UHGV virus genome: UHGV-0341897
Length of the DNA stretch: 23,469 bases
DNA from: a virus
Reading direction: 5' to 3' (one strand)
Shown here: one piece after another, positions 3,599 to 23,469 of the stretch
How the letters are laid out: every line of letters begins with the position of its first letter
Position numbering within the stretch: the stretch's first letter is position 1
Position numbers and translations under genes: made by a program
Notes under the pieces: model-generated
Told to the model about the DNA's origin: nothing
The model's database searches: none
The model's input: only the letters and a program-made list of their open reading frames with translations

Positions 3599-4567
3599 CT
3601 AGAATGATGCACAATCTTTAAGCTCTTTTTCTAGTTGTTCAACCAAGTCACAGCATTTTTTGATAACATCTTTAACTGACTCTGAATCTAACTTATGAAA
3701 ATTACCATTTTTTGTTTTACCTGCTCGATGAACTAAGTCATGCCTAATTAACACGCTTTTATAAACTTCTGTGAAAACAGGGAATTTAATACCAAAGGTA
3801 TCTCGATACATGCCACTTACTTTTGGCAGATTATGATAAAGAACACTCTTCATAGACTCTATCGCTTGAGACTCTATTTGTTCATGCCTTATAAATAATT
3901 CAGAAAGTAAGAATTTTTCTGTATTGTAATCTTTGAAGGTTTCAACAAAATTTCTCAAATTAGTTTGGCTACCATGAATTAGGGAAATAAATCTGTCACA
4001 TAAATATGTTTCCAAGGAAGTTATTGTATTGGCATATAGCATATACGACATTTGTATTTGTAAAGTGCTATCAATTTTTAACTGAGCATCATTTAGTTTT
4101 ATGGCGTTCTGCATACTATTTTGGAATGTCATATAGACATCTCGTTCAGATAGCGTTCGATCATCAGAGTACTGCATATCAATAACATCTAGAATGCGCT
4201 GTTCAATTAATGAAGGTCTATTCAACTGTAATATATCTATAGTCGCATGTCCTCGCTCAGTTAAACCTTCTAAATATCCATTTTTATTTTGTTTTATATG
4301 TTCTGAAAAACTTTCATTTAAAGGATTTAGAAGTAATGGTTTGCCATTTTCATCGAGAGGAAACTGATCTTTTTTAATCATGCTACATGCCTTACAAGCG
4401 ATGAGCAGGTTGTCTGTAGCATCTTGGAAGTCAGTATACTTTGATTTTGGGAAAAAACGATCAACATCCGCCATCAATGGTTCATAAAGTTTAGTGCCAC
4501 AGTAAGCACATTGATGCTTAAACTTCTCCCATAGTTCAAGTTTAAACGTTTTATAATTCTTATTCAT
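3599..4567 (-). CDS. Orphan HNH-like zinc-finger nuclease-domain protein with a C-terminal helical domain carrying an Rx4HxR (HEPN-like) motif; candidate defence or restriction protein
   Basis: 322-aa ORF in a very AT-rich island. N-terminus has C-A-Y-C ... V-D-R-F-F-P ... D-N-L-L-I-A-C-K-A-C-S-M-I-K-K, an HNH/His-Me finger pattern with Arg where the catalytic His is expected. C-terminus has LIRHDLVHRAG. AAGGAA Shine-Dalgarno lies 8 nt upstream of the ATG. Confidence 0.75.
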   Translation of the reverse strand: MNKNYKTFKLELWEKFKHQCAYCGTKLYEPLMADVDRFFPKSKYTDFQDATDNLLIACKACSMIKKDQFPLDENGKPLLLNPLNESFSEHIKQNKNGYLEGLTERGHATIDILQLNRPSLIEQRILDVIDMQYSDDRTLSERDVYMTFQNSMQNAIKLNDAQLKIDSTLQIQMSYMLYANTITSLETYLCDRFISLIHGSQTNLRNFVETFKDYNTEKFLLSELFIRHEQIESQAIESMKSVLYHNLPKVSGMYRDTFGIKFPVFTEVYKSVLIRHDLVHRAGKTKNGNFHKLDSESVKDVIKKCCDLVEQLEKELKDCASF

Positions 4568-4640
4568 TGAATAGTTCCTTTATATTCTTGACTTGATTGT
4601 TTGTTTGCCAATTTAAGCCAAAGACACACGACTTTAATTG

Positions 4641-4676
4641 GGCTTGAATCATAGTTATATGTAATCTATTAAGCAA
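4641..4676 (-). promoter_or_regulatory. Putative sigma-70 promoter for the HNH-like gene
   Basis: Minus strand reads TTGCTT, a 17-nt spacer, then TATGAT, about 75 nt upstream of the ATG. Sequence-only prediction. Confidence 0.3.
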
Positions 4677-5011
4677 ACACTTTTCATTAATAGCATGAGA
4701 TAACGCTCAATTCTTTATTTTCCGGGAGTGTGTAACTTCATATCCACCTCTCACTCACAGCGTACGTTATTGGCGAAAAATTTAGTTAAGCCATTGATAG
4801 TTTGTGAAAACACGCATGATTTAAAATCCCTTTGCCGTGAAGGGGCTGATAGGTACAGGCACTTGTTTTTGCCCTCTAAAACGGTTATCAAAACCAAAAA
4901 ACATACATTGATAATCAATAGGTTAGGGGAAAGATAAAAGCCAGTTGATTTACAATAAAATTATAGGATTATTTTTATTTATCATGCGGTTGTATATGAA
5001 CCATCTAACTA

Positions 5012-5176
5012 CTGCTGCGCCATATGGGCTGGACTGAAGCCGCAGACCTGATTGTTAAAGGTATGGAAGGCGCAATCAACGCGAAGACCGTAACCTATGA
5101 CTTCGAACGTCTGATGGAAGGCGCTAAACTGCTGAAATGTTCAGAGTTTGGTGACGCGATCATCAAGAACATGTAA
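5012..5176 (+). pseudogene. icd: Isocitrate dehydrogenase 3'-terminal 165-bp segment (icdC-like att homology), not joined to an icd body
   Basis: Translation [54 protein letters not shown] matches the Icd C-terminus. An in-frame TAA lies immediately upstream, and the DNA further upstream is AT-rich and unrelated. Confidence 0.85.
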
Positions 5177-5199
5177 TCTCTACATGTGTTAAATATTGA

Positions 5200-5230
5200 A
5201 ACGGGCGTATAACACGCCCGTTGTTTTATG
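5200..5230 (+). terminator. Rho-independent terminator after the icd 3' segment
   Basis: Perfect 9-bp stem AACGGGCGT / ACGCCCGTT with loop ATAAC, followed by TTGTTTTAT. Confidence 0.65.
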
Positions 5231-5242
5231 ATGATGTAAAAT

Positions 5243-5279
5243 CTTCCCCAAAACTTTCCCCAAAACCCTTCCCCAAAAC
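5243..5279 (+). repeat. Three tandem 12-bp direct repeats (C/T)TTCCCCAAAAC between the att homology and int; candidate integrase arm-type binding sites
   Basis: Direct reading gives cttccccaaaac, tttccccaaaac, c, cttccccaaaac. An imperfect inverted copy (gttaggggaaag) lies near 4922-4935 on the other side of the icd segment. Confidence 0.55.
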
Positions 5280-5289
5280 TGGCTATTTT

Positions 5290-6432
5290 CTATGCTGTTT
5301 TGATATCTACGATAATCCAGTCTTTACCACGATCATCATTGTATCGGTCGGTCATTTTTCTGGATTTATGGCCTAACAACTTTTGCGTATCCAGACCCTG
5401 TTCCCGATATAACCGTTCTGACAGAGATCGCTGCTCATGAAATGTGGGCGCAGTTCCTTGCTCCCATTTTATGCCACATTTTTCCCTGGCCTTTTTAAAA
5501 GCCGTTGTCAGAGTATTCGCAGAAACCTGGTCTCCTCTGTTTGCTTGAGAGGTTGTGTGACGGTAATGGACCAGATATTTACTAACAACAGCATCCCTGC
5601 ACTGAGATATAACTTCACGAAGGGTAATATTCAGAGCATCGCATTTCAGGTTAAGCGGAATAGCAAGTTTTGAACCGGTTTTTTCCTGAGTAATGTGCAA
5701 CATGTCGTCCCAGATATCAGAGAATTTCAAATTGCAGATATCGCCTAAACGTTGTCCAGTGACAAGAGCAAGTAGCATCCCACATTTTAAATAGGGCTGC
5801 CGTCTGCTTACGCTGTCAAATATTGCCTGCCATTCGGGCAGTGATAATCTTTGGCGGTTTACTCGATTTCGCGGTTGTTTTGTTGCCTGCGCTGGGTTAA
5901 ATCCTGGCGGAACATGTCCTGCGTGTTGTGCTTCTTTGAAGACGTCGATTAACACCATTCTCACGACTTGCGCCATCCTGTTATGACCTTCAGCCTTTAC
6001 AGCATCAATTATTTCGGCAATATCAAGTGCGGTAATATCCTTGAGGTGTTGCATTCCACAATGCTCACGGAAAAGACGAATGGGTTTGCCTTTTTGCCGA
6101 TAGGAGTTGGGTCTTAGTTCATTATGTTGCAGCCTGTCCTCCTGGATAGAAATATATTTATCAAGCCATTCTGTCACCGTAATGTCTGAGCGCCTGCCTT
6201 TCATTCTTTCCAGACGCTCATTGACGCTTAATATTTGTCGGGTACGTTGTTCAGCAATAATGATATTTGCTTCAGTAGCAACTTGTTTTGCTTCATTCTC
6301 ATCAGTTCCTAAGCTATGAAAACGACCGGATAGTGGATGTTTGTATTGCCAATATACCTTTCCGGTTCGCTTATCTAATTTGCAATATAAATTGGGTATA
6401 GAGATTTTGTGAGATCGGGGTCTAGCAGCCAT
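5290..6432 (-). CDS. int: Tyrosine recombinase, lambda-family integrase
   Basis: 380-aa ORF whose C-terminus (HEQRSLSERLY ... LLGHKS ... TDRYNDDRGKDW) parallels the lambda Int catalytic region. It is adjacent to the att homology and overlaps xis. Confidence 0.95.
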   Translation of the reverse strand: MAARPRSHKISIPNLYCKLDKRTGKVYWQYKHPLSGRFHSLGTDENEAKQVATEANIIIAEQRTRQILSVNERLERMKGRRSDITVTEWLDKYISIQEDRLQHNELRPNSYRQKGKPIRLFREHCGMQHLKDITALDIAEIIDAVKAEGHNRMAQVVRMVLIDVFKEAQHAGHVPPGFNPAQATKQPRNRVNRQRLSLPEWQAIFDSVSRRQPYLKCGMLLALVTGQRLGDICNLKFSDIWDDMLHITQEKTGSKLAIPLNLKCDALNITLREVISQCRDAVVSKYLVHYRHTTSQANRGDQVSANTLTTAFKKAREKCGIKWEQGTAPTFHEQRSLSERLYREQGLDTQKLLGHKSRKMTDRYNDDRGKDWIIVDIKTA

Positions 6433-6658
6433 CAGCGATTATCCGTTGGAGTTTTGGGTTTGCGTTTATTGGGAGTTGCGGTTCTGCAAGCGTTCCTACA
6501 AAACGGGAATTTCGGTCAATCATCCAGTAGCGACCAACTTTTATAGCGGGTGGGGCCATCATTTTCCCTTGCGCGTATTTTTTCAGAACTCGCTCACTTG
6601 GTGCTAAGTCCCCAAATTCTTCTTTAGCCCAGTCCTGTAAAGTGATTAGTCGAGACAT
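6422..6658 (-). CDS. xis: Excisionase (lambda Xis-type)
   Basis: 78-aa ORF upstream of int and overlapping it by 11 bp. Starts MSRLITLQDWAKEE, similar to lambda Xis MYLTLQEW. Confidence 0.8.
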   Translation of the reverse strand: MSRLITLQDWAKEEFGDLAPSERVLKKYAQGKMMAPPAIKVGRYWMIDRNSRFVGTLAEPQLPINANPKLQRIIADGC

Positions 6659-6797
6659 TTGTCCTCCTCTTAGCTGCTGAGGGAGTTTGTGACCGATATA
6701 TCTGACATGATATTAAGCTCATGGCAGGTACATCTCTTGACTGGTCATAGAGATAAATTTAATGCTGAGAAATGCAGTATTGAATTTATCAATTTTT

Positions 6798-7037
6798 CTA
6801 TTTCCTGCGTATGGCACGTAACTTCTTAATGTGTTCTGCCGTTTCGATCTCTTCTGCTATCCGATCTGCATCAGCTTTATTCACAGGTTCAAAGTCATGA
6901 TTAAAGCGGAACATGCTGGCGATACATGTTCTGCCTTTTCGGATGTAGTGAACTTTGTTGTGGGTAGAACGCAGGATTTTGCAGGGAGTGCCGTGGTGGT
7001 CGACGTACCAGGTGTTAGGAAAAATGATTCTGAACAT
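6798..7037 (-). CDS. Hypothetical early-left (b2/ea-region) protein
   Basis: 79-aa ORF co-oriented with the int-to-exo gene string. No family recognised. Confidence 0.45.
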   Translation of the reverse strand: MFRIIFPNTWYVDHHGTPCKILRSTHNKVHYIRKGRTCIASMFRFNHDFEPVNKADADRIAEEIETAEHIKKLRAIRRK

Positions 7038-7084
7038 TTTTACACCTCAGTTGGACGATGTTGAAATTTGCTGCTTTGAGGCCA

Positions 7085-7303
7085 TCACAGTCCCCATTGT
7101 TTGTTCTTAAGTTCGATCTCCTCCTGGCAACTTGCACAAGTCCGACAACCCTGAACGGCCAGGCGTCTTCGTTCATCTATCGGATCGCCACACTCACAAC
7201 AATGAGTGGCAGATATAGCCTGGTGGTTCAGGCGGCGCATTTTTATTGCTGTGTTGCGCTGTAATTCTTCAATTTCTGATGCTGAATCAATGATGTCTGC
7301 CAT
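7085..7303 (-). CDS. DksA/TraR-family C4 zinc-finger protein
   Basis: 72-aa ORF with C-C-E-C ... C-R-T-C-A-S-C spacing typical of TraR/DksA-type zinc fingers common in lambdoid early regions. Confidence 0.65.
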   Translation of the reverse strand: MADIIDSASEIEELQRNTAIKMRRLNHQAISATHCCECGDPIDERRRLAVQGCRTCASCQEEIELKNKQWGL

Positions 7304-7401: not shown

Positions 7402-7683
7402 TCACCGTTCCTTAAAGACGCCGTTTAACATGCCGATCGCCAGGCTTAAATGAGTCGGTGTGAATCCCATCAGCGTTACCGTTTCGCGGTGCTTCTTCAG
7501 TACGCTACGGCAAATGTCATCGACGTTTTTATCCGGAAACTGCTGTCTGGCTTTTTTGATTTCATAATTAGCCTGACGGGCAATACTGCGAAGGGCGTTT
7601 TCTTGCTGAGGTGTCATTGAACAAGTCCCATGTCGGCAAGCATAAGCACACAGAATATGAAGCCCGCTGCCAGAAAAATGCAT
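7402..7683 (-). CDS. Hypothetical early-left protein (possibly starting at internal Met23)
   Basis: 93-aa ORF in the gene string between exo and xis. No family recognised. Confidence 0.45.
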   Translation of the reverse strand: MHFSGSGLHILCAYACRHGTCSMTPQQENALRSIARQANYEIKKARQQFPDKNVDDICRSVLKKHRETVTLMGFTPTHLSLAIGMLNGVFKER

Positions 7684-7693
7684 TCAGTGGTTG

Positions 7694-7885
7694 TCATACC
7701 TGGTCTCTCTCATCTGCTTCTGCTTTCGCCACCATCATTTCCAGCTTTTGTGAAAGGGATGTGGCTAACGTATGAAATTCTTCGTCTGTTTCTACTGGTA
7801 TTGGCACAAACCTGACTCCAATTTGAGCGAGGCTATGTGCCATCTCGATACTCGTTCTTAACTCAACGGGAGATGCTTTGTGCAT
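7694..7885 (-). CDS. Hypothetical early-left protein
   Basis: 63-aa acidic ORF co-oriented with the operon. Confidence 0.4.
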   Translation of the reverse strand: MHKASPVELRTSIEMAHSLAQIGVRFVPIPVETDEEFHTLATSLSQKLEMMVAKAEADERDQV

Positions 7886-12545: not shown

Positions 12546-13091
12546 ATGACTATGCAACCACTTACATACCAACAGACTAGCGGATTTAGCCCGACTGCGG
12601 TGATAAATCGTTCTCAAACAAAACAGGCGCCAGGCCACGAAAAAATCCGTGATGCCGTTCGCGCCTGGTCGGCTGCAGATAATCAGGATGTTGTTGCCGC
12701 ACTCATTGTGAATGAGTATCGGGAGCAGGGCGGCGGCACCATCGATTTCCCTGATGATGTCAGCCGTGCACGCCAGAAGCTGTTCCGCTTCCTCGATAAC
12801 AAATTCGATTCTGAAAAATACCGAAATAACGTGCGTGAACTGACCCCGGCAATTCTGGCGGTACTACCGCTGGAATATCGCGGCCACCTGGTTGAGCAGG
12901 ATAGCTTCATGGCTCGGCTGGCTGAAATGGAAAAGGAACTCAGTGAGGCAAAACAGGCTGTCATTCTCAACGCACCACGCCACCAGAAACTGAAGGAGAT
13001 GAGTGAAGGCATTGTGTCGATGTTTCGTGTGGACCCGGATCTGGCTGGTCCACTGATGGCGATGGTCACCACCATGCTGGGGGCAATATGA
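12546..13091 (+). CDS. CII-position regulator (possibly YdaT-family)
   Basis: 181-aa ORF between cro and O. Assigned by position only; YdaT-like identity is a guess from memory. Confidence 0.5.
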   Translation: MTMQPLTYQQTSGFSPTAVINRSQTKQAPGHEKIRDAVRAWSAADNQDVVAALIVNEYREQGGGTIDFPDDVSRARQKLFRFLDNKFDSEKYRNNVRELTPAILAVLPLEYRGHLVEQDSFMARLAEMEKELSEAKQAVILNAPRHQKLKEMSEGIVSMFRVDPDLAGPLMAMVTTMLGAI

Positions 13092-13177
13092 CAGGTTCGG
13101 AAATGGCGAAAGCCGGTCTGCGCGAACAGAACCGACTTTCAGGTGCAAATCGTAACACACTCATTGCGGGAGGAATT

Positions 13178-14107
13178 ATGGCAAACACTGCTGAGATATT
13201 CAATTTTCCAGTGCCGGATGTGGCACAAAAGGAGCCGCGCGTGGCAGATCTCGATGATGGTTATACGCGCATTGCAAATGAGTTGCTGGAAGCTGTGATG
13301 CTGGCCGGATTAACACAGCACCAGCTTCTGGTCTTCCTGGCTGTCATGCGCAAAACATATGGCTTTAATAAAAAACTGGATTGGGTGAGCAACGAGCAAC
13401 TTTCCGAGTTGACCGGGATATTGCCGCACAAGTGTTCTGCTGCAAAAAGTGTTCTGATAAAGCGTGGGATTTTTATTCAGAGCGGGCGGAATATCGGCAT
13501 TAATAATGTGGTCAGTGAATGGTCAACATTACCCGAATCAGGTAAGAAAAATAAAGTTTACCTGAAAGAGGTAAATTTACCTGAATCAGGTAAGAAAAGT
13601 TTACCCAAATCAGGTAAAGACGTTTACCCGAATCAGGTAAACACAAAAGACAAACTAACAAAAGACAATATAAAACCTTTTTCGTCCGAGAATTCTGGCG
13701 AATCCTCTGACCAGCCAGAAAACGATCTTCCTGTGGTGAAACCGGATGCTGCAATTCAGAGCGGCAGCAAGTGGGGGACAGCAGAAGACCTGACCGCCGC
13801 AGAGTGGATGTTTGACATGGTGAAGACCATCGCGCCATCAGCCAGAAAACCGAATTTTGCAGGGTGGGCTAACGATATCCGCCTGATGCGTGAACGTGAC
13901 GGACGTAACCACCGCGACATGTGTGTACTGTTCCGCTGGGCATGCCAGGACAACTTCTGGTCCGGTAACGTGCTAAGTCCGGCCAAACTCCGCGACAAGT
14001 GGACCCAACTCGAAATCAACCGTAACAAGCAACAGGCTGGCGTGACAGCCGGAAAATCAAAACTCGACCTGACAAACACTGACTGGATTTATGGGGTGGA
14101 TTTATGA
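13178..14107 (+). CDS. O: Replication initiator, lambda O-like (origin-binding)
   Basis: Start at MANTAEIFNFPV with a GGGAGG Shine-Dalgarno; the ORF track extends to 13088. Has the lambda O N-terminal motif VADLDDGY, internal iterons, and a C-terminus overlapping P. Confidence 0.9.
   Translation: MANTAEIFNFPVPDVAQKEPRVADLDDGYTRIANELLEAVMLAGLTQHQLLVFLAVMRKTYGFNKKLDWVSNEQLSELTGILPHKCSAAKSVLIKRGIFIQSGRNIGINNVVSEWSTLPESGKKNKVYLKEVNLPESGKKSLPKSGKDVYPNQVNTKDKLTKDNIKPFSSENSGESSDQPENDLPVVKPDAAIQSGSKWGTAEDLTAAEWMFDMVKTIAPSARKPNFAGWANDIRLMRERDGRNHRDMCVLFRWACQDNFWSGNVLSPAKLRDKWTQLEINRNKQQAGVTAGKSKLDLTNTDWIYGVDL
13529..13641 (+). repeat. Replication origin iterons: five copies of about 19 bp (TTTACC-N7-GGTAA) inside O, followed by an AT-rich stretch
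   Basis: Direct reading gives ttacccgaatcaggtaag, tttacctgaaagaggtaaa, tttacctgaatcaggtaag, tttacccaaatcaggtaaa, tttacccgaatcaggtaaa. The AT-rich tract cacaaaagacaaactaacaaaagacaatataaaacc follows at 13642-13680. Confidence 0.8.
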
Positions 14108-14805
14108 AAAACATCGCCGCACAGATGGTTAACTTTGACCGTGAGCAGATGTGCCGGATCGCCAATAACATGCCGGAACAGTACGACGAAAAGCCGCAGG
14201 TACAGCAGGTAGCGCAGATCATCAACGGTGTGTTCAGCCAGTTACTGGCAACTTTCCCGGCGAGTCTGGCTAACCGGGACCAGAACGAACTGAACGAAAT
14301 CCGCCGCCAGTGGGTTCTGGCTTTCCGGGAAAACGGGATCACCACAATGGAACAGGTTAACGCAGGAATGCGCGTAGCCCGTCGGCAGAATCGACCATTC
14401 CTGCCATCACCCGGGCAGTTTGTTGCCTGGTGTCGGGAAGAAGCATCCGTTACCGCCGGGCTGCCAAACGCCAGCGAGCTGGTTGATATGGTTTACGAGT
14501 ATTGCCGGAAGCGTGGCCTTTATCCGGATGCAGAGTCTTATCCATGGAAATCAAACGCGCATTACTGGTTGGTTACCAACCTGTATCAGAACATGCGAGC
14601 CAATGCGCTGACTGACGCGGAATTACGGCGCAAGGCTGCCGATGAACTGACCTGTATGACAGCGCGAATTAACCGTGGTGAGGCTATACCTGAACCAGTA
14701 AAACAAATTCCTGTCATGGGCGGTAGACCTCTAAATCGTGCACAGGCTCTGGCGAAGATCGCAGAAATCAAAGCTAAGTTTGGGCTGAAAGGAGCAAGAG
14801 TATGA
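14104..14805 (+). CDS. P: Replication protein P (DnaB helicase loader), lambda-like
   Basis: 233-aa ORF MKNIAAQMVNFDREQMCRIANNMPEQYDEKPQVQQVAQIINGVFSQLL..., near-identical to lambda P as I recall it. Confidence 0.97.
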   Translation: MKNIAAQMVNFDREQMCRIANNMPEQYDEKPQVQQVAQIINGVFSQLLATFPASLANRDQNELNEIRRQWVLAFRENGITTMEQVNAGMRVARRQNRPFLPSPGQFVAWCREEASVTAGLPNASELVDMVYEYCRKRGLYPDAESYPWKSNAHYWLVTNLYQNMRANALTDAELRRKAADELTCMTARINRGEAIPEPVKQIPVMGGRPLNRAQALAKIAEIKAKFGLKGARV

Positions 14806-15104
14806 CGGGCAAAGAGGCAATTATTCATTACCTGGGGACTCATAAGAACTTCTGTGCGCAGGACGTTGCCGCGGTAACAGGCGCAACCGTAACCAGCATA
14901 AATCAGGCTGCGGCTAAAATGGCGCGGGCAGGAATCCTGGTCGTTGATGGTAAGGTCTGGCGAACGGTGTATTATCGGTTCGCTACCAGAGAAGAACGGG
15001 AAGGAAAGGTGAGCGCGAATTTGATTTTTAAGGAGTGTCGCCAGAGTGCCGCGATGAAACGGGTATTGAGGGTATATAAAAGAACATCAATGGGTACACA
15101 ATGA
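14802..15104 (+). CDS. ren: Ren (Rex-exclusion protection protein)
   Basis: 100-aa ORF MTGKEAIIHYLGTHKNFCAQDVAAVTGATVTSINQAAAKMARAG..., matching lambda/DLP12 Ren from memory. Confidence 0.9.
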   Translation: MTGKEAIIHYLGTHKNFCAQDVAAVTGATVTSINQAAAKMARAGILVVDGKVWRTVYYRFATREEREGKVSANLIFKECRQSAAMKRVLRVYKRTSMGTQ

Positions 15105-15171
15105 TGAAACAGGTGAGTTGAGTTCAAACTGTAGTACAATTCTCTCCAGTTTGAACAGGAAAGAATATGCT

Positions 15172-15504
15172 ATGAACCCTTATATTTATCTTGGTGGTGC
15201 AATACTTGCAGAGGTCATTGGTACAACCTTAATGAAGTTTTCAGAAGGTTTTACACGGTTATGGCCATCTGTTGGTACAATTATTTGTTATTGTGCATCA
15301 TTCTGGTTATTAGCTCAGACGCTGGCTTATATACCTACAGGGATTGCTTATGCTATCTGGTCAGGAGTCGGTATTGTCCTGATTAGCATACTATCATGGG
15401 GATTTTTCGGCCAACGGTTGGACCTGCCAGCCATTATAGGCATGATGTTGATTTGTGCCGGTGTGTTGGTTATTAATTTATTGTCACGAAGCACACCACA
15501 TTAA
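15172..15504 (+). CDS. emrE: Small multidrug resistance efflux transporter EmrE
   Basis: 110-aa product from Met19 of the ORF track entry (MNPYIYLGGAILAEVIGTTLMKFSEGF...), with four hydrophobic helices. Matches E. coli EmrE, known from DLP12. Confidence 0.95.
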   Translation: MNPYIYLGGAILAEVIGTTLMKFSEGFTRLWPSVGTIICYCASFWLLAQTLAYIPTGIAYAIWSGVGIVLISILSWGFFGQRLDLPAIIGMMLICAGVLVINLLSRSTPH

Positions 15505-15759
15505 AAATAATTTATTTTTAAACGACTAAAATATGGAGGTTCGTATATTTGTATGGGCCTCGTTTTATGCTTTTTGTTAATGTCTTTAGTTTTTATTCAT
15601 TCTTTTGAACTTTCAAGATTATGGTGTAAGAAAATTGCAATACGATTATTGTTGTATATTCAAGATAATGTGACCTTAATTGTCTTTTTAAATAAAAATT
15701 AAACAAAAATCATATCTCACCACTAAGGTTTATAAAAGCATACTTTAGCAGGTGTCACC

Positions 15760-17286
15760 ATGAAAAAAGCCATAGCATATATGCGATTTTCATCACCAGG
15801 TCAGATGTCTGGTGATTCATTAAACCGCCAGAGAAGGCTTATTACTGAATGGCTAAAGGTAAATAGTGATTATTACCTTGATACCGTAACGTATGAAGAT
15901 TTGGGGTTAAGCGCATTCAATGGAAAGCATGCACAATCAGGAGCTTTTTCGGAATTTTTAGATGCTATAGAACATGGTTACATATTGCCAGGGACTACAT
16001 TGTTAGTTGAAAGTCTGGACAGACTTTCAAGAGAAAAAGTCGGTGAAGCGATTGAGCGTCTGAAATTGATTTTGAATCACGGTATTGATGTTATAACTCT
16101 TTGCGATAATACAGTCTATAATATAGACTCATTGAATGAGCCATATTCATTAATAAAAGCCATACTTATAGCACAAAGGGCAAATGAAGAAAGCGAGATA
16201 AAGTCAAGTCGGGTTAAATTATCATGGAAGAAAAAACGGCAGGATGCACTGGAATCAGGCACGATTATGACGGCGTCTTGTCCGAGATGGCTCTCATTGG
16301 ATGACAAAAGAACAGCTTTTATTCCAGACCCCGACAGGGTGAAAACGATTGAGCTAATTTTTAAACTCAGGATGGAAAGGCGATCATTGAATGCAATAGC
16401 TAAGTATTTAAATGATCATGCTGTAAAAAATTTTTCAGGAAAAGAAAGTGCATGGGGGCCTTCTGTAATTGAAAAATTATTAGCGAATAAAGCTCTGATA
16501 GGTATATGCGTACCTTCATATCGTGCAAGAGGGAAAGGGATAAGTGAAATCGCTGGCTATTATCCCAGAGTCATATCAGATGATTTGTTTTACGCTGTAC
16601 AGGAAATTCGGTTGGCACCTTTTGGTATTAGCAATAGTAGCAAGAATCCTATGCTAATAAATCTACTTCGAACAGTTATGAAGTGTGAGGCTTGTGGTAA
16701 TACCATGATTGTTCATGCGGTATCTGGACGTTTGCATGGCTATTATGTTTGTCCGATGAGAAGATTACATCGATGTGACAGGCCATCAATAAAAAGAGAT
16801 TTGGTTGATTATAATATCATTAATGAATTGCTTTTTAATTGTAGCAAAATTCAACCAGTTGAAAACAAGAAAGATGCTAATGAAACTTTAGAGTTAAAAA
16901 TTATTGAGCTTCAGATGAAAATTAATAATTTAATCGTTGCATTGTCTGTCGCGCCTGAAGTTACCGCTATAGCAGAGAAAATAAGACTATTAGATAAGGA
17001 ATTACGAAGGGCTTCGGTATCATTAAAAACTTTGAAGAGTAAAGGGGTGAGTTCACTTGGTGATTTTCATGCTATTGATTTAACTAGTAAAAATGGGCGA
17101 GAGCTATGTCGTACACTTGCCTATAAAATATTCGAAAAAATTATAATTAATACAGATAATAAAACCTGTGATATCTATTTTATGAATGGCATTGTTTTTA
17201 AACACTATCCTTTAATGAAAGTAATATCCGCCCAGCAGGCGATAAGCACTCTTAAATATATGGTTGATGGTGAGATTTATTTTTGA
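15760..17286 (+). CDS. ybcK: Large serine recombinase (resolvase/invertase-type catalytic domain; YbcK-like)
   Basis: 508-aa ORF with the N-terminal serine-recombinase motif AYMRFSSPGQ and a cysteine cluster (C-E-A-C ... C-P-M ... C-D) typical of the zinc-ribbon region. Flanked by AT-rich non-coding DNA. Confidence 0.85.
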   Translation: MKKAIAYMRFSSPGQMSGDSLNRQRRLITEWLKVNSDYYLDTVTYEDLGLSAFNGKHAQSGAFSEFLDAIEHGYILPGTTLLVESLDRLSREKVGEAIERLKLILNHGIDVITLCDNTVYNIDSLNEPYSLIKAILIAQRANEESEIKSSRVKLSWKKKRQDALESGTIMTASCPRWLSLDDKRTAFIPDPDRVKTIELIFKLRMERRSLNAIAKYLNDHAVKNFSGKESAWGPSVIEKLLANKALIGICVPSYRARGKGISEIAGYYPRVISDDLFYAVQEIRLAPFGISNSSKNPMLINLLRTVMKCEACGNTMIVHAVSGRLHGYYVCPMRRLHRCDRPSIKRDLVDYNIINELLFNCSKIQPVENKKDANETLELKIIELQMKINNLIVALSVAPEVTAIAEKIRLLDKELRRASVSLKTLKSKGVSSLGDFHAIDLTSKNGRELCRTLAYKIFEKIIINTDNKTCDIYFMNGIVFKHYPLMKVISAQQAISTLKYMVDGEIYF

Positions 17287-17610
17287 GTAATAATCACTTT
17301 TTCAACCGTGCTATGGTATGAAAGTAAAGTAACTACTATGATATTAACTATCTTGAACGAAGCGCCCTGAGCTATAGTTTTACTATAGGCACTGCCACTG
17401 GATGTTGGCATTCTCGCTCTAGTAGCTCAACAATACCCAATCACAAAACAATTCACTGATAACAAACTTTGTGCACGTGCTTAGTTATGGCGAACAGGTG
17501 ATGTTAACCTCCTGCCAGAATGCCACTCCACTTCATTAAGTATCTGAGCACCGAGAGGCTGGTCACGCCCCCATTAAAAATAATTTCTTTTGAATCGAGT
17601 GAAATAGGTT

Positions 17611-17638
17611 AGCCCGCATAAGTGCGGGCTGCTTTTTA
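17611..17638 (+). terminator. Rho-independent terminator (plus-strand sense) abutting the esterase stop codon
   Basis: Stem AGCCCGCA-taag-TGCGGGCT followed by GCTTTTTAC. Confidence 0.45.
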
Positions 17639-18679
17639 CAGGTCAGCGTTTGTTTTTTGTTGTTGGGTAGCGGTTTTTATGGGGGTTCCCAGGTTTTTAG
17701 TAAACCACTCAACAACTCTGTTTATAATAATTGGCTGATACCATGTATTATCACCATGCTCAGCCCCTTCTACCAGAACGTACTCAGCGTTATCGCCGTT
17801 CTTCTTCAACATCCTGAATAGTTTGGCGCTTTGCTCAGGTGAAACCAGAGTGTCTTTGCTACCATGCATAATAAGAAATGGGGGTTTTACTCCTTTCATA
17901 TGTCCGATTGGACTGGCGTTTAGCGCTTTTTCTTTTGACGCTGTGATGGGGGCTCCCGCAAAATTTCTGAATGCAGGGCCATTGATCATTAAGGCTTCGG
18001 TTACGGCAGGAGAGCGATGAACCTCCTGCACTGATTCAGGGAACCCCTCGCCAATATTCAACAAGTCAGAAATCCCATAAAGTGTGGCAACTGCCTGAAC
18101 ATCTGAGGATTGCTGAAGAAAGTCACCTTTATCAAAGGTTTTGTCACCATTTGTAGTTCCCATCATCTGAGCAAGCCATCCACCGGCAGAGTCACCCAGA
18201 ACTCCGATTCTTTGAGGATCAATCCCATAATTGCTGGCATGCTCTCTCAGGTAACGTATTGCAGCTTTTCCATCCTCAACTGGTGCTGGAAATGTATCAG
18301 GAATTGTTCTGTATTCTACAGCGGCCACAACAAAACCAGCTTCTGCCAGAGCCATTCTCATTTCAATAAATTTGTCATGTTCAGAAGACATGAATCCGCC
18401 GCCGGGATAATAAATAATGGCTGGTTTTAAATCATTTGTTCGCGGGACAAGAACTGACATGTGAAGCTGTCTGACAGAACGAGTTCCTTTTATCTGGGAA
18501 TAAACAACATCACCAATGAGATCGACCTGGTTTCTGGTCGGTGAAACACTAATGATATCTGCACCCGGGGTGTAACCAGGAAGATTAGTCTGGACAGGTG
18601 TTGCACAACTCCCGACCGACATGGCCATTGACATACCATACAATAGTGTTGCAGATGATAATATCTTGTTAATTTTCAT
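17636..18679 (-). CDS. Secreted alpha/beta-hydrolase esterase/lipase (Aes/HSL family), probable lipoprotein
   Basis: 347-aa ORF with a signal peptide ending in the lipobox-like SVGSC, the oxyanion motif YYPGGGF, and the catalytic-serine motif GDSAGG. Confidence 0.8.
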   Translation of the reverse strand: MKINKILSSATLLYGMSMAMSVGSCATPVQTNLPGYTPGADIISVSPTRNQVDLIGDVVYSQIKGTRSVRQLHMSVLVPRTNDLKPAIIYYPGGGFMSSEHDKFIEMRMALAEAGFVVAAVEYRTIPDTFPAPVEDGKAAIRYLREHASNYGIDPQRIGVLGDSAGGWLAQMMGTTNGDKTFDKGDFLQQSSDVQAVATLYGISDLLNIGEGFPESVQEVHRSPAVTEALMINGPAFRNFAGAPITASKEKALNASPIGHMKGVKPPFLIMHGSKDTLVSPEQSAKLFRMLKKNGDNAEYVLVEGAEHGDNTWYQPIIINRVVEWFTKNLGTPIKTATQQQKTNADL

Positions 18680-19126
18680 GTTTTACATGCCTTGACTTAT
18701 CGGATGAAATTCTCTTACTGAATTTAACGGCAGTTTAATAGCCGTACAACTCGTGGTAGCCAGGGAAATATCCCAGTCGTGGTTAAGGTTGTACTTGACG
18801 GCTATTATTTCAACAATGCTTAAAGTGAGAGCTTAAGGTTATGCGTATGTTTTACAGTCCGAGTAGATTCTGACCAATAGCTTCTTTGTATAATTCTGTC
18901 AGAAATAAATCTTGGCTTGCATGAAGTTTGAGACCTTATCTTGTTTGATTATGAATAATCAATTCGCCATAATTGTATCACCGGAGCCTGAACAACTCCG
19001 GTGACTTCTGCGCTAAACGGGGACGTTTATGCGCACACACAATCCAAACTCTCTTCTCCCTTCACAGATGCAGAAATGCACCTGCGTTTTTTTGCATCCA
19101 GCGTCTGACCTCTGTGGAGGTGAAGC

Positions 19127-19582
19127 GTGAACCTACCACAAGATGGCATCAAACTGCATCGCGGTAACTTCATCGCTATCGGCCAGCAGATCCAGCCTTA
19201 TCTGGAGAACGGAAAATGCTTTCGCATGGTGCTTAAACCGTGGCGTGAGAAACGCAGTCTTTCCCAGAATGCACTCAGCCACATGTGGTACAGCGAAATC
19301 AGTGAATACCTCATCAGCAGGGGGAAATCGTTCGCTACCGCAGCATGGGTAAAAGATGCTCTCAAACACACATACCTCGGTTATGAAACCAAGGACCTGG
19401 TTGATGTCGTAACCGGCGAAATCACTACTATCCAGTCGTTACGCCATACCTCCGATCTCGATACCGGAGAGATGTATGTCTTCCTGTGTAAGGTTGAAGC
19501 CTGGGCGGTGAATATTGGCTGCCACCTGACTATTCCGCAGAGCTGCGAGTTCCAGCTGCTGCGCGACAAGCCGGAGGCGTAA
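19127..19582 (+). CDS. ybcN: NinB/YbcN-family protein
   Basis: 151-aa ORF at the start of the nin-type region, matching DLP12 YbcN from memory. Its stop overlaps the ninE start (TAATG). Confidence 0.85.
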
Positions 19583-19752
19583 TGGCTACACCGCTTATTC
19601 GTGTCATGAACGGACACATCTACAGAGTACCAAATCGTCGTAAGCGTAAGCCTGAGCTGAAACCATCCGAAATACCAACACTGCTCGGATATACCGCCAG
19701 CCTGGTTGATAAAAAATGGTTGCGACTGGCAGCAAGGAGGAATCATGGCTGA
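19582..19752 (+). CDS. ninE: NinE-like small protein
   Basis: 56-aa [59 protein letters not shown], found by manual translation (below the ORF track's size cut-off). Overlaps ybcO. Confidence 0.75.
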   Translation: MATPLIRVMNGHIYRVPNRRKRKPELKPSEIPTLLGYTASLVDKKWLRLAARRNHG

Positions 19753-20035
19753 TTTGAGAAAAGCAGCACGTGGTCGGGAATGCCAGGTAAGAATCCCTGG
19801 CGTATGTAATGGCAATCCTGAAACGTCAGTACTGGCACATATCCGGCTGGCTGGATTGTGCGGCACCGGTATTAAACCGCCAGACCTTATTGCCACCATT
19901 GCATGTTCTGACTGTCACGACGAGATCGACCGTCGCACGCATTTTGTTGACGCTGGATATGCAAAAGAATGCGCGCTGGAAGGTATGGCGAGAACGCAGG
20001 TTATCTGGCTGAAAGAGGGGGTAATTAAGGCGTGA
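19745..20035 (+). CDS. ybcO: YbcO-family putative nuclease (DUF1364)
   Basis: 96-aa product from Met14 of the ORF track entry ([34 protein letters not shown]...) with cysteine and histidine clusters. Immediately upstream of rusA. Confidence 0.8.
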
Positions 20036-20394
20036 ATACTTACCATATCACACTACCCTGGCCGCCGAGCAATAATCGCTATTACCGCCATAATCGTGGG
20101 CGCACGCACGTCAGCGCAGAGGGGCAAGCATACCGCGATAATGTCGCCCGAATCATTAAAAACGCAATGCTGGATATCGGCCTGGCTATTCCTGTGAAAA
20201 TCAGCATTGAGTGCCACATGCCGGATCGCCGTCGCCGTGACCTTGATAATCTGCAAAAGGCCGCTTTTGACGCACTCACCAAAGCAGGTTTCTGGCTGGA
20301 TGATGCTCAGGTCGTTGATTACCGCGTTGTGAAGATGCCCGTTACCAAAGGTGGGAAGCTGGAGCTGACCATCACCGAAATGGGGAATGAATGA
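20032..20394 (+). CDS. rusA: RusA Holliday-junction resolvase
   Basis: 120-aa [47 protein letters not shown]..., near-identical to E. coli RusA as recalled. Confidence 0.97.
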
Positions 20395-20531
20395 TATTTG
20401 AGTTTTATATGGCAGAACGTCTTCGCCACCGCTGGATGCGCCTGCGCTTATATCGTTTTCCTGGTTCTGTTTTGGCCGATTACCGGATACTGAAGAATTA
20501 CGCCAAAACACTGAAAGGAGCATGTGTATGA
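20391..20531 (+). CDS. ylcG: YlcG-like small protein
   Basis: 46-aa [49 protein letters not shown], found by manual translation. Its ATG overlaps the rusA stop (ATGA). Confidence 0.65.
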
Positions 20532-20616
20532 AGTCAGAGATAACAATCGACTAATACTGTTTTGTTGATTTTTGCTTGTAATTGGCGTTCTGGCCTAATT
20601 TTTGTGGAGTAAGTTG

Positions 20617-21000
20617 ATGCGTGATGTTCAGATGGTTCTTGAGCGTTGGGGGGCGTGGGCAGCTAATAATCATGAAGATGTGACCTGGTCGTCCATTGCT
20701 GCCGGTTTTAAGGGATTAATTCCTTCAAAAGTAAAATCTCGCCCGCAATGTTGTGACGATGACGCGATGATCATTTGCGGGTGCATGGCCCGTCTGAAAA
20801 AGAACAACAGCGATTTACACGATTTATTAGTAGATTATTATGTATGTGGTATGACATTCATGTCACTGGCAAGTAAGCATTGCTGCTCGGATGGTTATAT
20901 CGGGAAAAGGTTACAGAAGGCTGAGGGCATAATTGAAGGGATGTTAATGGCATTAGATATCCGGTTAGATATGGATATCGTTGCTAATAATTCTAATTGA
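20617..21000 (+). CDS. quuD: Late-gene antiterminator Q (QuuD-like)
   Basis: 127-aa product from the ATG for [24 protein letters not shown]...; the ORF track starts at an upstream TTG. Matches DLP12 QuuD from memory. Confidence 0.9.
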
Positions 21001-21022
21001 TATGCAATTGTTTACTAAAAGT

Positions 21023-21050
21023 TATTAAAAATGGGGCGTGGAAACGCCCC
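21023..21050 (-). terminator. Hairpin with T-run on the minus strand (possible nmpC-side terminator)
   Basis: Stem GGGGCGT-ttcc-ACGCCCC followed on the minus strand by ATTTTTAAT. Confidence 0.35.
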
Positions 21051-21136
21051 CAAAATAAAGGGTAATATATAACAGAAGGTTTATATAGTAAGAAGCAAGG
21101 TAGTGCTTCTAAAGGAAGTGGCTTGAGGGCTCCACT

Positions 21137-21177
21137 TATATGTTGCGGAGGCAAAGCCTCCCGCAACATATCTTTTT
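21137..21177 (+). terminator. Strong Rho-independent terminator downstream of Q (tR'-like candidate)
   Basis: Stem of about 15 bp, ATATGTTGCGGAGGC-aaa-GCCTCCCGCAACATAT, followed by CTTTTT. Confidence 0.6.
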
Positions 21178-21188
21178 CGTAAGTCAGA

Positions 21189-22271
21189 TTAGAACTGATA
21201 AACCAGACCTACAGCGACGATGTCGTCGGTATCAATACCAGCTGTTTTGGTAAACTTACTATCGTCAATTAAGTTGATTTTGTAATCAACAAAAGTGGAC
21301 ATGTTTTTATTAAAGTAGTAAGTAGCACCGACATCGACATACTTGACTAAGTCTCGGTCACCATGAACACCAAGGTCTTTACCTTTTGACTGAAGGTAAG
21401 CAACAGATGGGCGCAGACCGAAGTCAAACTGATATTGTGCTACTGCTTCAAAGTTTTGTGCTTTGTTTGCAATATGGTTATTACCAAAAACGGTCATATT
21501 CTGAGTTTCAGAATATGTGGTAGCCAGATAGATATTGTTCGCATCATATTTCAGGCCTGCAGCCCATACTTCCGCATTTTTGCCGGAGGCATTGAATTTG
21601 CTCTTACCATAGGCGACCTGACCGTCAGTGCGATCTGATTTAGCATAGGTTGCACCCACGCCGAATCCTTCATACTCATAAGTAGTGGAGAAACCGAAAC
21701 CATCACCATTGGCTTCAGTTACGTCAGTGCGGTCATTTTTACCCTGATACTGAGCAGCAAAGTTCAGGCCATCGACCAGACCAAAGAAGTCGTTGTTACG
21801 ATAAGTTGCAACACCAGTAGTGCGACCAGTCATGAACACATCTGTTTGGGTCCAGGTATCACCACCGAATTCTGGCAGAACGTCAGTCCACGCACCGATG
21901 TCGTATGCTACACCGTAGTTACGGCCGTAATCGATTGAGCCGTAATCACCAAATTTCAGGCCTGCAAATGCAAGACGGGTTTTGTCTTTGGAAGAACCTT
22001 GAGATTCAGCACGGTTGCCTTTGAATTCATATTCCCACTGACCGAAACCAGTCAGTTGATCGTTGATTTGGGTTTCACCTTTGAAGCCAAGACGGGCATA
22101 AGTAGTATCACCATCATCTGCATCATTAGAGGAGAAGTAGTGCTTGGCATTAACTTTCCCGTATAGATCCAGCTTGTTACTGTCTTTATTATAAATTTCA
22201 GCTGCCTGAGCAGACATCGCCATCAGTACTGATGCAGCTACAGCAGAAATTGCCACTGTTAATTTTTTCAT
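21189..22271 (-). CDS. nmpC: Outer-membrane general porin (NmpC/OmpD, OmpC family), intact
   Basis: 360-aa product from the internal Met ([23 protein letters not shown] signal peptide, then AEIYNKD...). Ends ...VGLVYQF with the beta-barrel C-terminal Phe. Not interrupted by any insertion sequence. Confidence 0.9.
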
Positions 22272-22697
22272 TGTACGCCCTTTTTTTGAACTATTATTAA
22301 AAAATGATGTCACTGCGCGATAAATATTCATCTAATCAATGTGATTATTTCAAGATGTAAGTTTTAGTTTCTCATTTAATTTGTGAAGTAGATCTCTATT
22401 TTTATCTGAACCTTTTCTATCTAATCCTATTCATGGCTCTTGTTTGAACGAAAATAAATCTATTAGCTAATTTATATTAATGGCACTTATTTATAAGCGC
22501 TCTATAATTCTTTAGCTTAATTTAAACAAACTAAAAATAACATCGGAAATTATTCATTGGTTATTTGTTGAAGTTTTCTTATGTATTTGTGGTGGTGTTT
22601 TGAACACTCGGTGGCATTCTCACAAATATCATTTAGTAGTTTACGTACGTAAAAAATTGGTTATGCTGTTAAGAGTGGTTACTTCGTCACACAGCTT

Positions 22698-22730
22698 AAA
22701 CCCGCCGTCGAGCGGGTTTTTCCATTTTTT
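22698..22730 (+). terminator. Rho-independent terminator upstream of the holin gene
   Basis: Stem AAACCCGC-cgtcga-GCGGGTTT followed by TTCCATTTTTT. Confidence 0.5.
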
Positions 22731-22859
22731 GAGTCTCGATATTAGCTGATAACCCAATACCTGAGTTATTCACTGACTCCGAATCTGTTACGTTTCTGCC
22801 TTTATTGCGATACGTAGTATCCCCTTAATTTACACCCGCTTTGTCTGCGAGGTGGGGTT

Positions 22860-23075
22860 ATGAAATCCATGGATAAGTTAACAACGGGTGTCGCCTATGG
22901 TACCTCAGCAGGTAGTGCCGGGTACTGGTTTTTACAGTTGCTCGATAAAGTCACGCCCTCACAGTGGGCGGCAATAGGTGTGCTGGGTAGTCTGGTATTT
23001 GGCTTGCTGACGTATCTGACAAACCTTTATTTCAAGATTAAAGAAGATAAGCGTAAGGCTGCGAGAGGTGAATAA
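22860..23075 (+). CDS. essD: Class II (phage 21 S-type) holin
   Basis: 71-aa [56 protein letters not shown]..., matching phage 21 S / DLP12 EssD from memory. Its stop overlaps the next ATG. Confidence 0.9.
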
Positions 23076-23469
23076 TGTCGCCATCATTACGCAAGGCTAT
23101 TGCTGCTGCTATTGGTGGTGGGGCTGTTGCCATAGCGTCTGTGCTCATCACTGGTCCGAGTGGTGACGATGGCCTGGAAGGTGTCAGCTACATACCATAC
23201 AAAGATATCGTTGGCGTATGGACTGTATGTCACGGACACACCGGAAAAGACATCATGCTCGGTAAAACGTATACCGAAGCAGAATGCAAAGCCCTCCTGA
23301 ATAAAGACCTTGCCACTGTCGCCAGACAAATTAACCCGTACATCAAAGTCGATATACCGGAAACAACGCGCGGCGCTCTTTACTCGTTCGTTTACAACGT
23401 GGGCGCTGGCAATTTCAGAACATCGACGCTTCTTCGCAAAATAAACCAGGGCGATATCAAAGGCGCATG
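23075..23469 (+). CDS. rrrD: SAR-type endolysin (phage 21 R / RrrD-like), 3' end truncated by the window
   Basis: Manual translation gives [61 protein letters not shown]..., with an N-terminal signal-anchor-release segment and lysozyme motifs. The ORF continues past 23469. Confidence 0.9.

Follow-up and report, generated by a model that had tools for sequence, protein, structure and literature searches.

Moron insertion in lambdoid phages, with mosaic joints at gene boundaries, is described by the model of Hendrix and Juhala. The closest described systems besides this model are the prophage DLP12 of Escherichia coli K-12, the phage Perceval with its relatives and the large serine integrases. 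Here, they are compared with a locus in the UHGV virus genome UHGV-0341897. The whole stretch analysed comprises 23,469 nucleotides and is called the window. It represents a lambda-like prophage, whose genes run from int and xis through exo/bet/gam, cI/cro, O, P, ren and the nin genes to Q and the lysis genes. In the locus in question, the interval from ren to ylcH/ybcN, lie emrE, ylcJ (a small open reading frame, ORF), ybcK for a large serine recombinase and, in convergent orientation, a gene for a lipoprotein-type esterase. We consider it probable (roughly 0.65) that this block arose by ordinary lambdoid mosaicism, i.e. by illegitimate out-of-register recombination together with homologous recombination, which placed three independent modules in a cargo slot. 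The block is read as a mosaic because the modules occur separately, the joints lie at gene ends and the stump of a P22AR gene stands beside a partial duplicate (D1b).

The order in K-12 DLP12 is renD-emrE-ylcJ-ybcK-ybcL-ybcM-ylcH-ybcN, with ren, emrE, ylcJ, ybcK, ylcH and ybcN placed as in the window. Nucleotide identity is ~96–98% up to the ybcK stop codon and again from position 18944. Between these points, the window's 1.6 kb after ybcK (P22AR stump, D1b and esterase) replaces the 309-bp spacer and ybcL-ybcM of DLP12. The window prophage is intact, lies at icd and has no IS3 in ren, whereas DLP12 is cryptic and lies at argU. The initial annotation had compared the pairing of emrE and ybcK to DLP12 and had noted the esterase as unexpected at that position, and correctly so; K-12 then continues with ybcL-ybcM and has no esterase there.

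Identity over the 4.8-kb region amounts to 99.5% for the isolated phages 4A7, Lambda_4C10, Perceval, 1W, 3W and PhiR47_2 and to 99.0% for D2. The query was covered in full in seven of eight phage records and to 96%, in two pieces, in D2. Annotated in the region are EmrE, a large serine recombinase/YbcK and an alpha/beta hydrolase. The Perceval group shows no difference of substance from the window and represents the same phage group. Perceval is the LF82 prophage and forms virions; its EmrE is one of its morons induced in DMEM (PMC9928086). The published work on Perceval contains no discussion of ybcK, the esterase or the repeat (PMC9928086). Only two details are new here, namely a precise 2.07-kb presence/absence unit and the duplicated terminator bracketing it, and the block is otherwise already known.

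The locus resembles the moron model in its AT-rich passengers between conserved genes, their own terminators, the joints at gene ends and the alternative cargo in the same slot. The difference is that one passenger is a site-specific recombinase, bracketed by what appears to be an assembly scar with a duplicated terminator. With the large serine integrases (Bxb1, PhiC31, A118/LI and SPbeta), YbcK shares the three-domain architecture, the catalytic residues and a zinc ribbon bearing a coiled coil, and its model gives full-length structural matches. It differs from them by an extra C-terminal beta-rich domain of ~65 residues and by its position in mid-prophage beside a separate tyrosine integrase, and its attachment (att) sites are candidates only.

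Contents and assortment of the ren–ylcH slot

The slot and its edges comprise the following features:

14802–15104, plus strand: ren, a Ren-like exclusion protein by PHROG, annotated as ren in related genomes; left flank of normal GC content
15172–15504, plus strand: emrE, an SMR multidrug efflux transporter of 110 amino acids; the start at 15118 is an upstream TTG in the same frame
15553–15702, plus strand: ylcJ, a small hydrophobic ORF of 49 amino acids, annotated in K-12, its ATG inside the hairpin of repeat copy D1a
15760–17286, plus strand: ybcK, a large serine recombinase of 508 amino acids, intact
17394–17564, plus strand: P22AR-C fragment, a decayed gene for an antirepressor C-terminal domain, cut at both ends
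17636–18679, minus strand: esterase, an alpha/beta hydrolase of the BD-FAE/hormone-sensitive-lipase type, 347 amino acids, ORF intact
19029–19130, plus strand: ylcH, annotated in locus L001 and in K-12, followed by ybcN/ninB
19127–19582, plus strand: ybcN, from the ORF list

We counted the parts of the block in 5,426 complete E. coli genomes. The full block was present in 172 of them, ybcK in 1,424, the esterase module in 682 and the K-12-type spacer after ybcK in 675. About three quarters of the esterase carriers have the gene in contexts other than the window block, including the AR_0055 type with its inverse autotransporter. Fillings of the slot were taken from a spread sample of the matches and from seven fetched loci, and at least seven were found:

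K-12 DLP12: emrE-ylcJ-ybcK-ybcL-ybcM
NWU_1: emrE-ylcJ-ybcK-P22AR'-hypothetical gene
O157: the NWU_1 type minus ~240 bp, both ends of the deletion reading CTATC
window: emrE-ylcJ-ybcK-P22AR'-esterase
F467: emrE adjoining the esterase, without ybcK
AR_0055: inverse autotransporter adjoining the esterase, without ren, emrE and ybcK
further types: other cargo without emrE, ybcK and the esterase, such as a PD-lambda-1 defence gene in phage PhiR26_1

An empty slot, with ren joined directly to ylcH, occurred in none of the 5,426 genomes; the smallest filling was ~750 bp (110 genomes). The joints are at gene ends: on either side of emrE (15095/15512), at the ybcK stop codon (in comparison with K-12), at the esterase (17632) and at the right boundary. 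The cargo starts at ~15095–15105, and its common right boundary is 18944, where homology to K-12, O157, NWU_1 and 2009C_3689 resumed in every comparison.

Three modules assort independently. The emrE module spans ~15095–15512, and a chromosomal locus with emrE only matches 15095–15512 at 92%. The ylcJ-ybcK module spans 15513–17286, with a 3' flank of its own up to 17393 in the window lineage. The esterase module spans 17632–18943; in AR_0055 it lies behind the inverse-autotransporter gene, and the homology starts at 17632. The right neighbours of ybcK vary and are ybcL-ybcM, P22AR with a hypothetical gene, or almost nothing. At this end, the K-12 type diverges at the stop codon into the 309-bp spacer, which is restricted to that arrangement, while the NWU_1 type runs on into P22AR and has no second site. 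Every E. coli copy of ybcK that was examined adjoins emrE in the ren–ninB slot. The K-12 spacer had also been considered as a gene remnant; this was rejected, as the spacer is confined to the K-12-type arrangement and has no similarity to P22AR.

The GC content of 15118–18900 is 0.387, compared with 0.522 on the left (P–ren) and 0.507 on the right (ylcH–ybcN onward). The initial annotation had described an AT-rich block between GC-normal ren and ybcN, with three unrelated cargo genes, and this agrees with the composition, with the ORFs, with the gene identities by Pfam and NCBIfam and with the independent assortment. It had further proposed that the recombinase could mark a nested mobile cassette. 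A single cassette of 3.7 kb was rejected, as each of the three genes is also met in the absence of the other two. Moreover, the modules differ in GC content (emrE 0.39, ylcJ-ybcK 0.35 and esterase 0.43), which argues against a single origin of the block.

The slot has the properties of a hot spot for morons or cargo, i.e. varying fillings, deviant GC content and terminator-like hairpins, one behind emrE and one where the esterase gene ends. Of the properties of a nested element, a precise empty-site allele is present (in F467 and four IMG/VR contigs). The same two ends in more than one unrelated target were not found in these comparisons: the left end is shared and the right end differs.

Proteins encoded in the block

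YbcK matches the Pfam families Resolvase (68.6 bits), Recombinase and Zn_ribbon_recom and the integrase family PHROG 95 (E 6e-120). The catalytic residues R9, S11 and D87-R88-L-S-R91 are invariant across 26 YbcK homologues, down to 29% identity, and the zinc-ribbon cysteines C309, C312, C331 and C339 are invariant across the same 26. The window copy carries all of these residues. A sequence search with YbcK against the PDB gave no match, and a fold search was needed. The AlphaFold (AF2) model (predicted local distance difference test, pLDDT, 83.7) has long helices at 346–426, and Foldseek matched it to the full-length serine integrases 9dxd, 9iu2 (Bxb1), 9tep (PhiC31) and 4kis (LI), with E values from 3e-18 to 1e-10. 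Between the window and K-12 alleles, the ratio of non-synonymous to synonymous divergence (dN/dS) is 0.07 at dS 0.14, which indicates purifying selection. YbcK is therefore a large serine recombinase that is predicted, from its sequence and model, to be functional and that is retained by these phages. It is strongly constrained, and it is present in roughly one in four complete E. coli genomes as well as in lambdoid prophages of several genera.

The window allele of ybcK differs from those of K-12, O157 and NWU_1 by dS 0.14, whereas those three differ from one another by ~0.01. The adjacent emrE differs from the same three by dS 0.04 only. The two genes therefore have separate histories even within the shared emrE-ybcK pairing.

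In K-12, a Rho-dependent terminator in the untranslated region upstream of ybcK keeps the gene silent (PMC4150792). The sole phenotype for ybcK in the literature is a better tolerance of sabinene when it is overexpressed (PMC7181518). The YlcJ protein has been detected in K-12 by tagging (PMC6001520).

In lambdoid prophages of Atlantibacter, of Pantoea and of an unassigned contig, orthologues of YbcK with 41–59% identity are encoded between the genes for replication and nin/Q. This equivalent lambdoid position in other genera points to long residence rather than hopping. The Yersinia orthologue lies just past the tail-fibre genes of a prophage, and that of Erwinia rhapontici, likewise past the tail-fibre genes, lies at the extreme end of a prophage, adjoining host lepA. 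A further orthologue (49% identical) was seen in Citrobacter koseri (L034, 3145–6530). Its neighbours are a gene for a 555-amino-acid protein with a faint Shufflon_N match, a TraD-like gene and a pilin-like gene, and this context resembles a plasmid or an integrative and conjugative element, not a prophage. A search of genome contigs with a single protein as query gave only E. coli, one Atlantibacter locus and a contig fragment of 253 bp. Apparent plasmid copies were rejected, as they were only mislabelled records of chromosome size.

The esterase matches Pfam BD-FAE (PF20434) with 153.9 bits, and Abhydrolase_3 as well. The motifs expected of the family were read from the sequence: the oxyanion motif PGGG (92–95), GDS164AG, Asp276 and His308. 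Its relatives in the PDB are Lip_vut4 (6nkf, 1e-37) and acetyl-xylan/carbohydrate esterases. The N-terminus, MKINK followed by a hydrophobic stretch and SVGS-C25, fits a lipobox pattern of the PROSITE type by eye. Disruption of this ORF had been raised initially as an objection; on examination, its 347 codons, the catalytic motifs and the lipobox-like signal were all intact. Both the substrate class and the processing as a lipoprotein are predictions from these motifs. The dN/dS of the esterase is 0.07–0.2.

EmrE scored 239.2 bits with NCBIfam NF042984 (SMR_efflux_EmrE), for a cut-off of 226, and matched Pfam Multi_Drug_Res. The essential Glu14 was present in the translation, as in SMR proteins of the EmrE type, and dN/dS is 0.02–0.2. 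Both EmrE and the esterase would serve the lysogen. No defence-system model of PADLOC matched any of the four block proteins.

An additional, older copy of emrE, 92% identical and at dS ~0.37 from the prophage alleles, is present in most E. coli genomes. It lies between fliE and yedF, next to ybcL-ybcM and part of the ylcH region, and ybcK is absent there. Positions 5001–7144 of the locus from strain A42 (L003) represent this site, adjoining IS200 and SRAP gene fragments. The fliE–yedF locus gives the impression of a lambdoid nin-region cargo slot of which only a last remnant has stayed behind in the chromosome.

The D1 repeat, the empty site and the origin of the block

Long non-coding spacers of about 255 and 350 bp had been described initially on either side of the recombinase gene. 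The lengths stand (~255 and 349 bp), but the spacers are not simply non-coding, since they hold ylcJ, terminator-like hairpins and the P22AR fragment. The upstream spacer (15505–15759) has a terminator-like hairpin at 15536–15561 directly after emrE and also contains ylcJ. The downstream spacer (17287–17635) consists of four parts: a 107-bp 3' flank of ybcK, the P22AR fragment (171 bp), a look-alike of the emrE 3' end (16 nt) and a hairpin with a T-run. The P22AR fragment is 78% identical to a full gene of 202 amino acids in strain 2009C_3689 (L007) and 81% identical to an ORF of 107 amino acids in NWU_1 (L006).

The initial annotation had suggested searching the recombinase flanks for repeats and related prophages for empty sites, and both were found. 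Judged by the conditions that the initial annotation had itself set, its hypothesis is not refuted. The repeat search gave a direct repeat of 38 nt (D1; 15496–15533 and 17569–17606), with 32 of 38 positions identical. Its two copies, in their full extent, are:

15496–15567, plus strand: D1a, with the emrE stop codon, the 15-nt core, the 3' untranslated region (UTR) and a weak terminator-like hairpin (15536–15561) with a T-run
17569–17638, plus strand: D1b, with the look-alike of the emrE 3' end, the same 15-nt core, the UTR and a strong hairpin (17610–17631) with a T-run

They bracket 2,073 bp with ylcJ, ybcK and the P22AR stump. The identical core of 15 nt, CATTAAAAATAATTT, lies within a near-palindrome (TTAAAAATAA-T-TTATTTTTAA). 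A 20-mer of D1 occurs three times in the window (0.01 expected), and the extended alignment (15496–15567 and 17569–17638) has 51 of 70 identical positions, a score that none of 2,000 shuffles reached. In each copy, the terminator-like hairpin and the T-run follow at the same offset, 37–38 nt after the core. From 17559 onward, the D1b side reads GTCACGCCCCCATTAA, compared with GTCACGAAGCACACCACATTAA in emrE, an in-frame difference of 6 nt. The hairpin at 17610–17631 abuts the esterase stop codon and likely ends transcription coming from either side. From its sequence, the D1 unit looks like an emrE 3' end with UTR and terminator that is present twice.

D1 is not read as a pair of recombinase sites because the similarity runs through the emrE-like 3' end, the UTR and the terminator. 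Sites of large serine recombinases are typically 40–50 bp long with a 2-bp crossover; the D1 unit is longer and different in kind. The right arm of D1b is identical to the emrE–esterase spacer of F467. The arm of D1a next to ylcJ is hypervariable: the O157 allele is ~79% identical, with flanking genes at 96–98%. At the other loci compared, the core motif was absent around the YbcK orthologues and degenerate in K-12, and the near-palindrome was degenerate in K-12 and NWU_1. Flanking repeats of the Atlantibacter and Yersinia orthologues were only short matches at chance level.

As the predicted empty site, 15200–15511 was joined to 17585–17900. This sequence matched strain F467 over 100% of its length, with 99.0% identity and in one piece. 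In F467, which has a prophage of the same type, ren-emrE is followed by the convergent esterase and then by ylcH-ybcN. The emrE|esterase junction, CACCACATTAAAAATAATTTCTTTTGAATCG, consists of exactly the D1a left arm and the D1b right arm, and it also occurred in one other complete genome and four IMG/VR contigs. The circle junction expected for an excised ybcK segment would be GGTCACGCCCCCATTAAAAATAATTTATTTTTAAACGAC. The five F467-type sequences have a ren/emrE haplotype in common, which is set off from every window-type sequence by many private differences, but their esterase side nests within the window-type diversity, closest to L027. The pattern is therefore compatible with insertion as well as with deletion. 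Another occupied/empty pair, K-12 and A42, shares this left junction.

On the mosaic reading, the block is the current filling of a moron hot spot that extends from ren to ylcH/ninB in the early-right operon. Its carrier is a functional lambda-like temperate phage of the Perceval/4A7 group, integrated at icd. The three modules are emrE with its terminator, ylcJ-ybcK, and the convergent esterase with a presumed promoter region of its own. They would most likely have been assembled by out-of-register crossovers between related phages with different cargo, and homologous recombination in the flanks that these phages share would have spread the arrangement afterwards. One of the crossovers may have joined a phage with emrE-ylcJ-ybcK-P22AR to a phage with emrE beside the esterase. 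Its joint would lie inside the P22AR gene on one side and in the last emrE codons on the other, and it would have left the P22AR stump and a second, diverged emrE 3' end with terminator (D1b). We infer this route from the stump standing directly against the partial duplicate D1b, which would be the footprint of an out-of-register crossover between two phages. The 38–70-nt repeat would then be a scar, and through it the 2.07-kb ybcK segment could be lost or gained again later via Red/RecA.

Partial duplicates flank cargo at two further loci, in unrelated prophages, which gives the same signature without the need for a recombinase site. In the metagenomic lambdoid contig L037, a ybcK orthologue (59% identical), KGG and DinI are flanked by a direct repeat of 229 bp with 82.5% identity. 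The repeat (4623–4851 and 7609–7831) consists of the upstream region and the first 59 codons of a DUF1367 nin gene, and of its two copies only the downstream one is complete, the upstream one being truncated. The cargo of strain 2009C_3689, P22AR-HEPN-hypothetical, has at its sides a ~109-bp duplicate of the region upstream of ylcH (L007, 4001–4109 and from 6278 onward), which is 95% identical to window positions 18989–19097.

Several observations weigh against assembly by simple crossovers. In its left arm, D1b is set apart from all observed emrE 3' ends by two substitutions and a deletion of 6 nt, which means that a crossover with an F467-type parent fails to reproduce the junction exactly. 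The mosaic reading needs this extra deletion with the two substitutions, or else an unsampled emrE allele. No emrE allele ending in ...CACGCCCCCATTAA was found in IMG/VR or in the JGI metagenome contigs; the 15-nt pattern searched was too short, giving random matches and 13 window-type contigs, and the lone JGI match was unrelated. D1b as a plain relic of a second emrE allele with this ending was dropped accordingly. In addition, two contexts, with the esterase or ybcL to the right, agree to the nucleotide in where the ybcK segment begins behind the emrE stop, and in both the right joint lies within ~20 nt of sequence resembling the emrE UTR. Site-specific insertion also predicts this pair of findings. 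Finally, the dyad-symmetric D1 core adjoins an intact recombinase gene.

One alternative concerns the F467 junction, which may not be ancestral and may have arisen secondarily, when a window-type phage lost the ybcK segment by deletion, through Red/RecA or slipped-strand recombination within the 15–18 nt of identical D1 core. The exact composition of the junction from the two D1 arms is consistent with this, as are the Exo and Bet proteins encoded by phages of the window group, the rarity of the F467 type (two complete genomes and four viral contigs, versus 172 genomes) and its esterase side nested in window-type diversity. However, the private ren/emrE haplotype of the five sequences requires at least one further recombination, and a single old lineage fits the ancestral state equally well. 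We regard a secondary deletion as possible, at clearly less than even odds.

It is improbable, though it deserves discussion, that ylcJ-ybcK with ~280 bp is a minimal mobile element with nothing but a recombinase, integrated by YbcK as a 2.07-kb circle at the dyad-symmetric core right behind the emrE stop. D1a and D1b would then be attL and attR, the F467 spacer would be attB, and attP would carry the emrE-like 3' end. A 38-nt repeat with an identical 15-nt core does flank the sole recombinase gene; the predicted attB exists exactly, as a single piece in a lineage with its own ren/emrE haplotype; and the left arm of D1b corresponds to no known emrE allele, as expected if it were borne by the element. 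The K-12/A42 pair and the intact, constrained YbcK point the same way. On the other hand, the right end is not conserved, since the K-12 type has an unrelated 309-bp spacer and the NWU_1 type continues into P22AR without a second site. The ylcJ-side arm is hypervariable, the palindrome decays in K-12 and NWU_1, and the repeats extend through the terminator, unlike typical sites. Moreover, there is no candidate for a recombination directionality factor, orthologues in Atlantibacter and Yersinia have no comparable flanking repeats, and every E. coli copy examined adjoins emrE. The movement of a segment by the serine recombinase, a possibility raised in the initial annotation, is accordingly disfavoured: the D1 copies resemble emrE 3' ends with terminators, the right ends differ, the arm next to ylcJ is hypervariable and the orthologues appear to be resident. 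Slightly more doubtful still is that a ~2-kb ylcJ-ybcK element, hardly more than a large serine recombinase, has the terminator region behind emrE in lambdoid phages as its specific insertion site, with the same assignment of attL, attR and attB. If it were true, ylcJ-ybcK would be a phage-borne selfish element that restores the 3' end of its target.

It is very unlikely that YbcK is a second integrase or resolvase for the whole phage, with an intact attP in a spacer beside ybcK, a target elsewhere in the host and cargo variation unrelated to YbcK: the prophage-end position in Erwinia rhapontici, the Yersinia position past the tail-fibre genes, the shared orientation of ybcK with the adjacent early-right operon (window, Atlantibacter, Pantoea and L037) and the strong conservation would fit, but no conserved non-coding element was found beside ybcK (on the upstream side the spacer varies, and on the downstream side the K-12 type has a different flank), K-12 ybcK is silenced by the Rho-dependent terminator (PMC4150792), and no second integration site is known for these phages.

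Surroundings of the block and biological meaning

Between ren and the emrE start, an inverted repeat was found:

15122–15156: inverted repeat of 13 nt, GTTCAAACTGTAG ... CTCCAGTTTGAAC, 12 of 13 positions complementary, with a 9-nt loop

Rfam gave no match for this region and none for the block at E values up to 1. Promoter-like matches in the block were not above chance.

E. coli CU42ET-1 matches the window with 99.7–99.9% identity over 12551–23469, and the prophage there adjoins icd. In this near-identical record, the annotation of ninE is frameshifted, whereas the window has an intact ORF of 56 amino acids (19582–19752); this is possibly a sequencing or annotation difference.

The left-hand region of the window, left of the lambdoid integrase (5290–6432), differs in character. 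On the plus strand, there is an ORF for a tail-fibre C-terminus (160–744) and a tail-fibre assembly gene (746–1174). They are faced on the minus strand by a second assembly gene (1146–1739) and an ORF at 1739–2221. This layout (160–2221) resembles an invertible tail-fibre segment such as that of e14. The same region holds an SRAP/YedK-like gene (2416–3084) and an AT-rich ORF of 322 amino acids (3599–4567; GC content ~0.32) with no Pfam match. The arrangement points to a second element, of e14 type, in tandem at icd.

The region from ren to ylcH is not one nested island but a cargo slot with many occupants, and the phage group to which it belongs is known and active, the LF82 prophage Perceval being one of its members. 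Through this slot, a drug/biocide efflux pump and a predicted exported esterase are spread among B2-type E. coli. The pair of occupied and empty sites provides a cheap and direct test of the action of YbcK on its own flanks.

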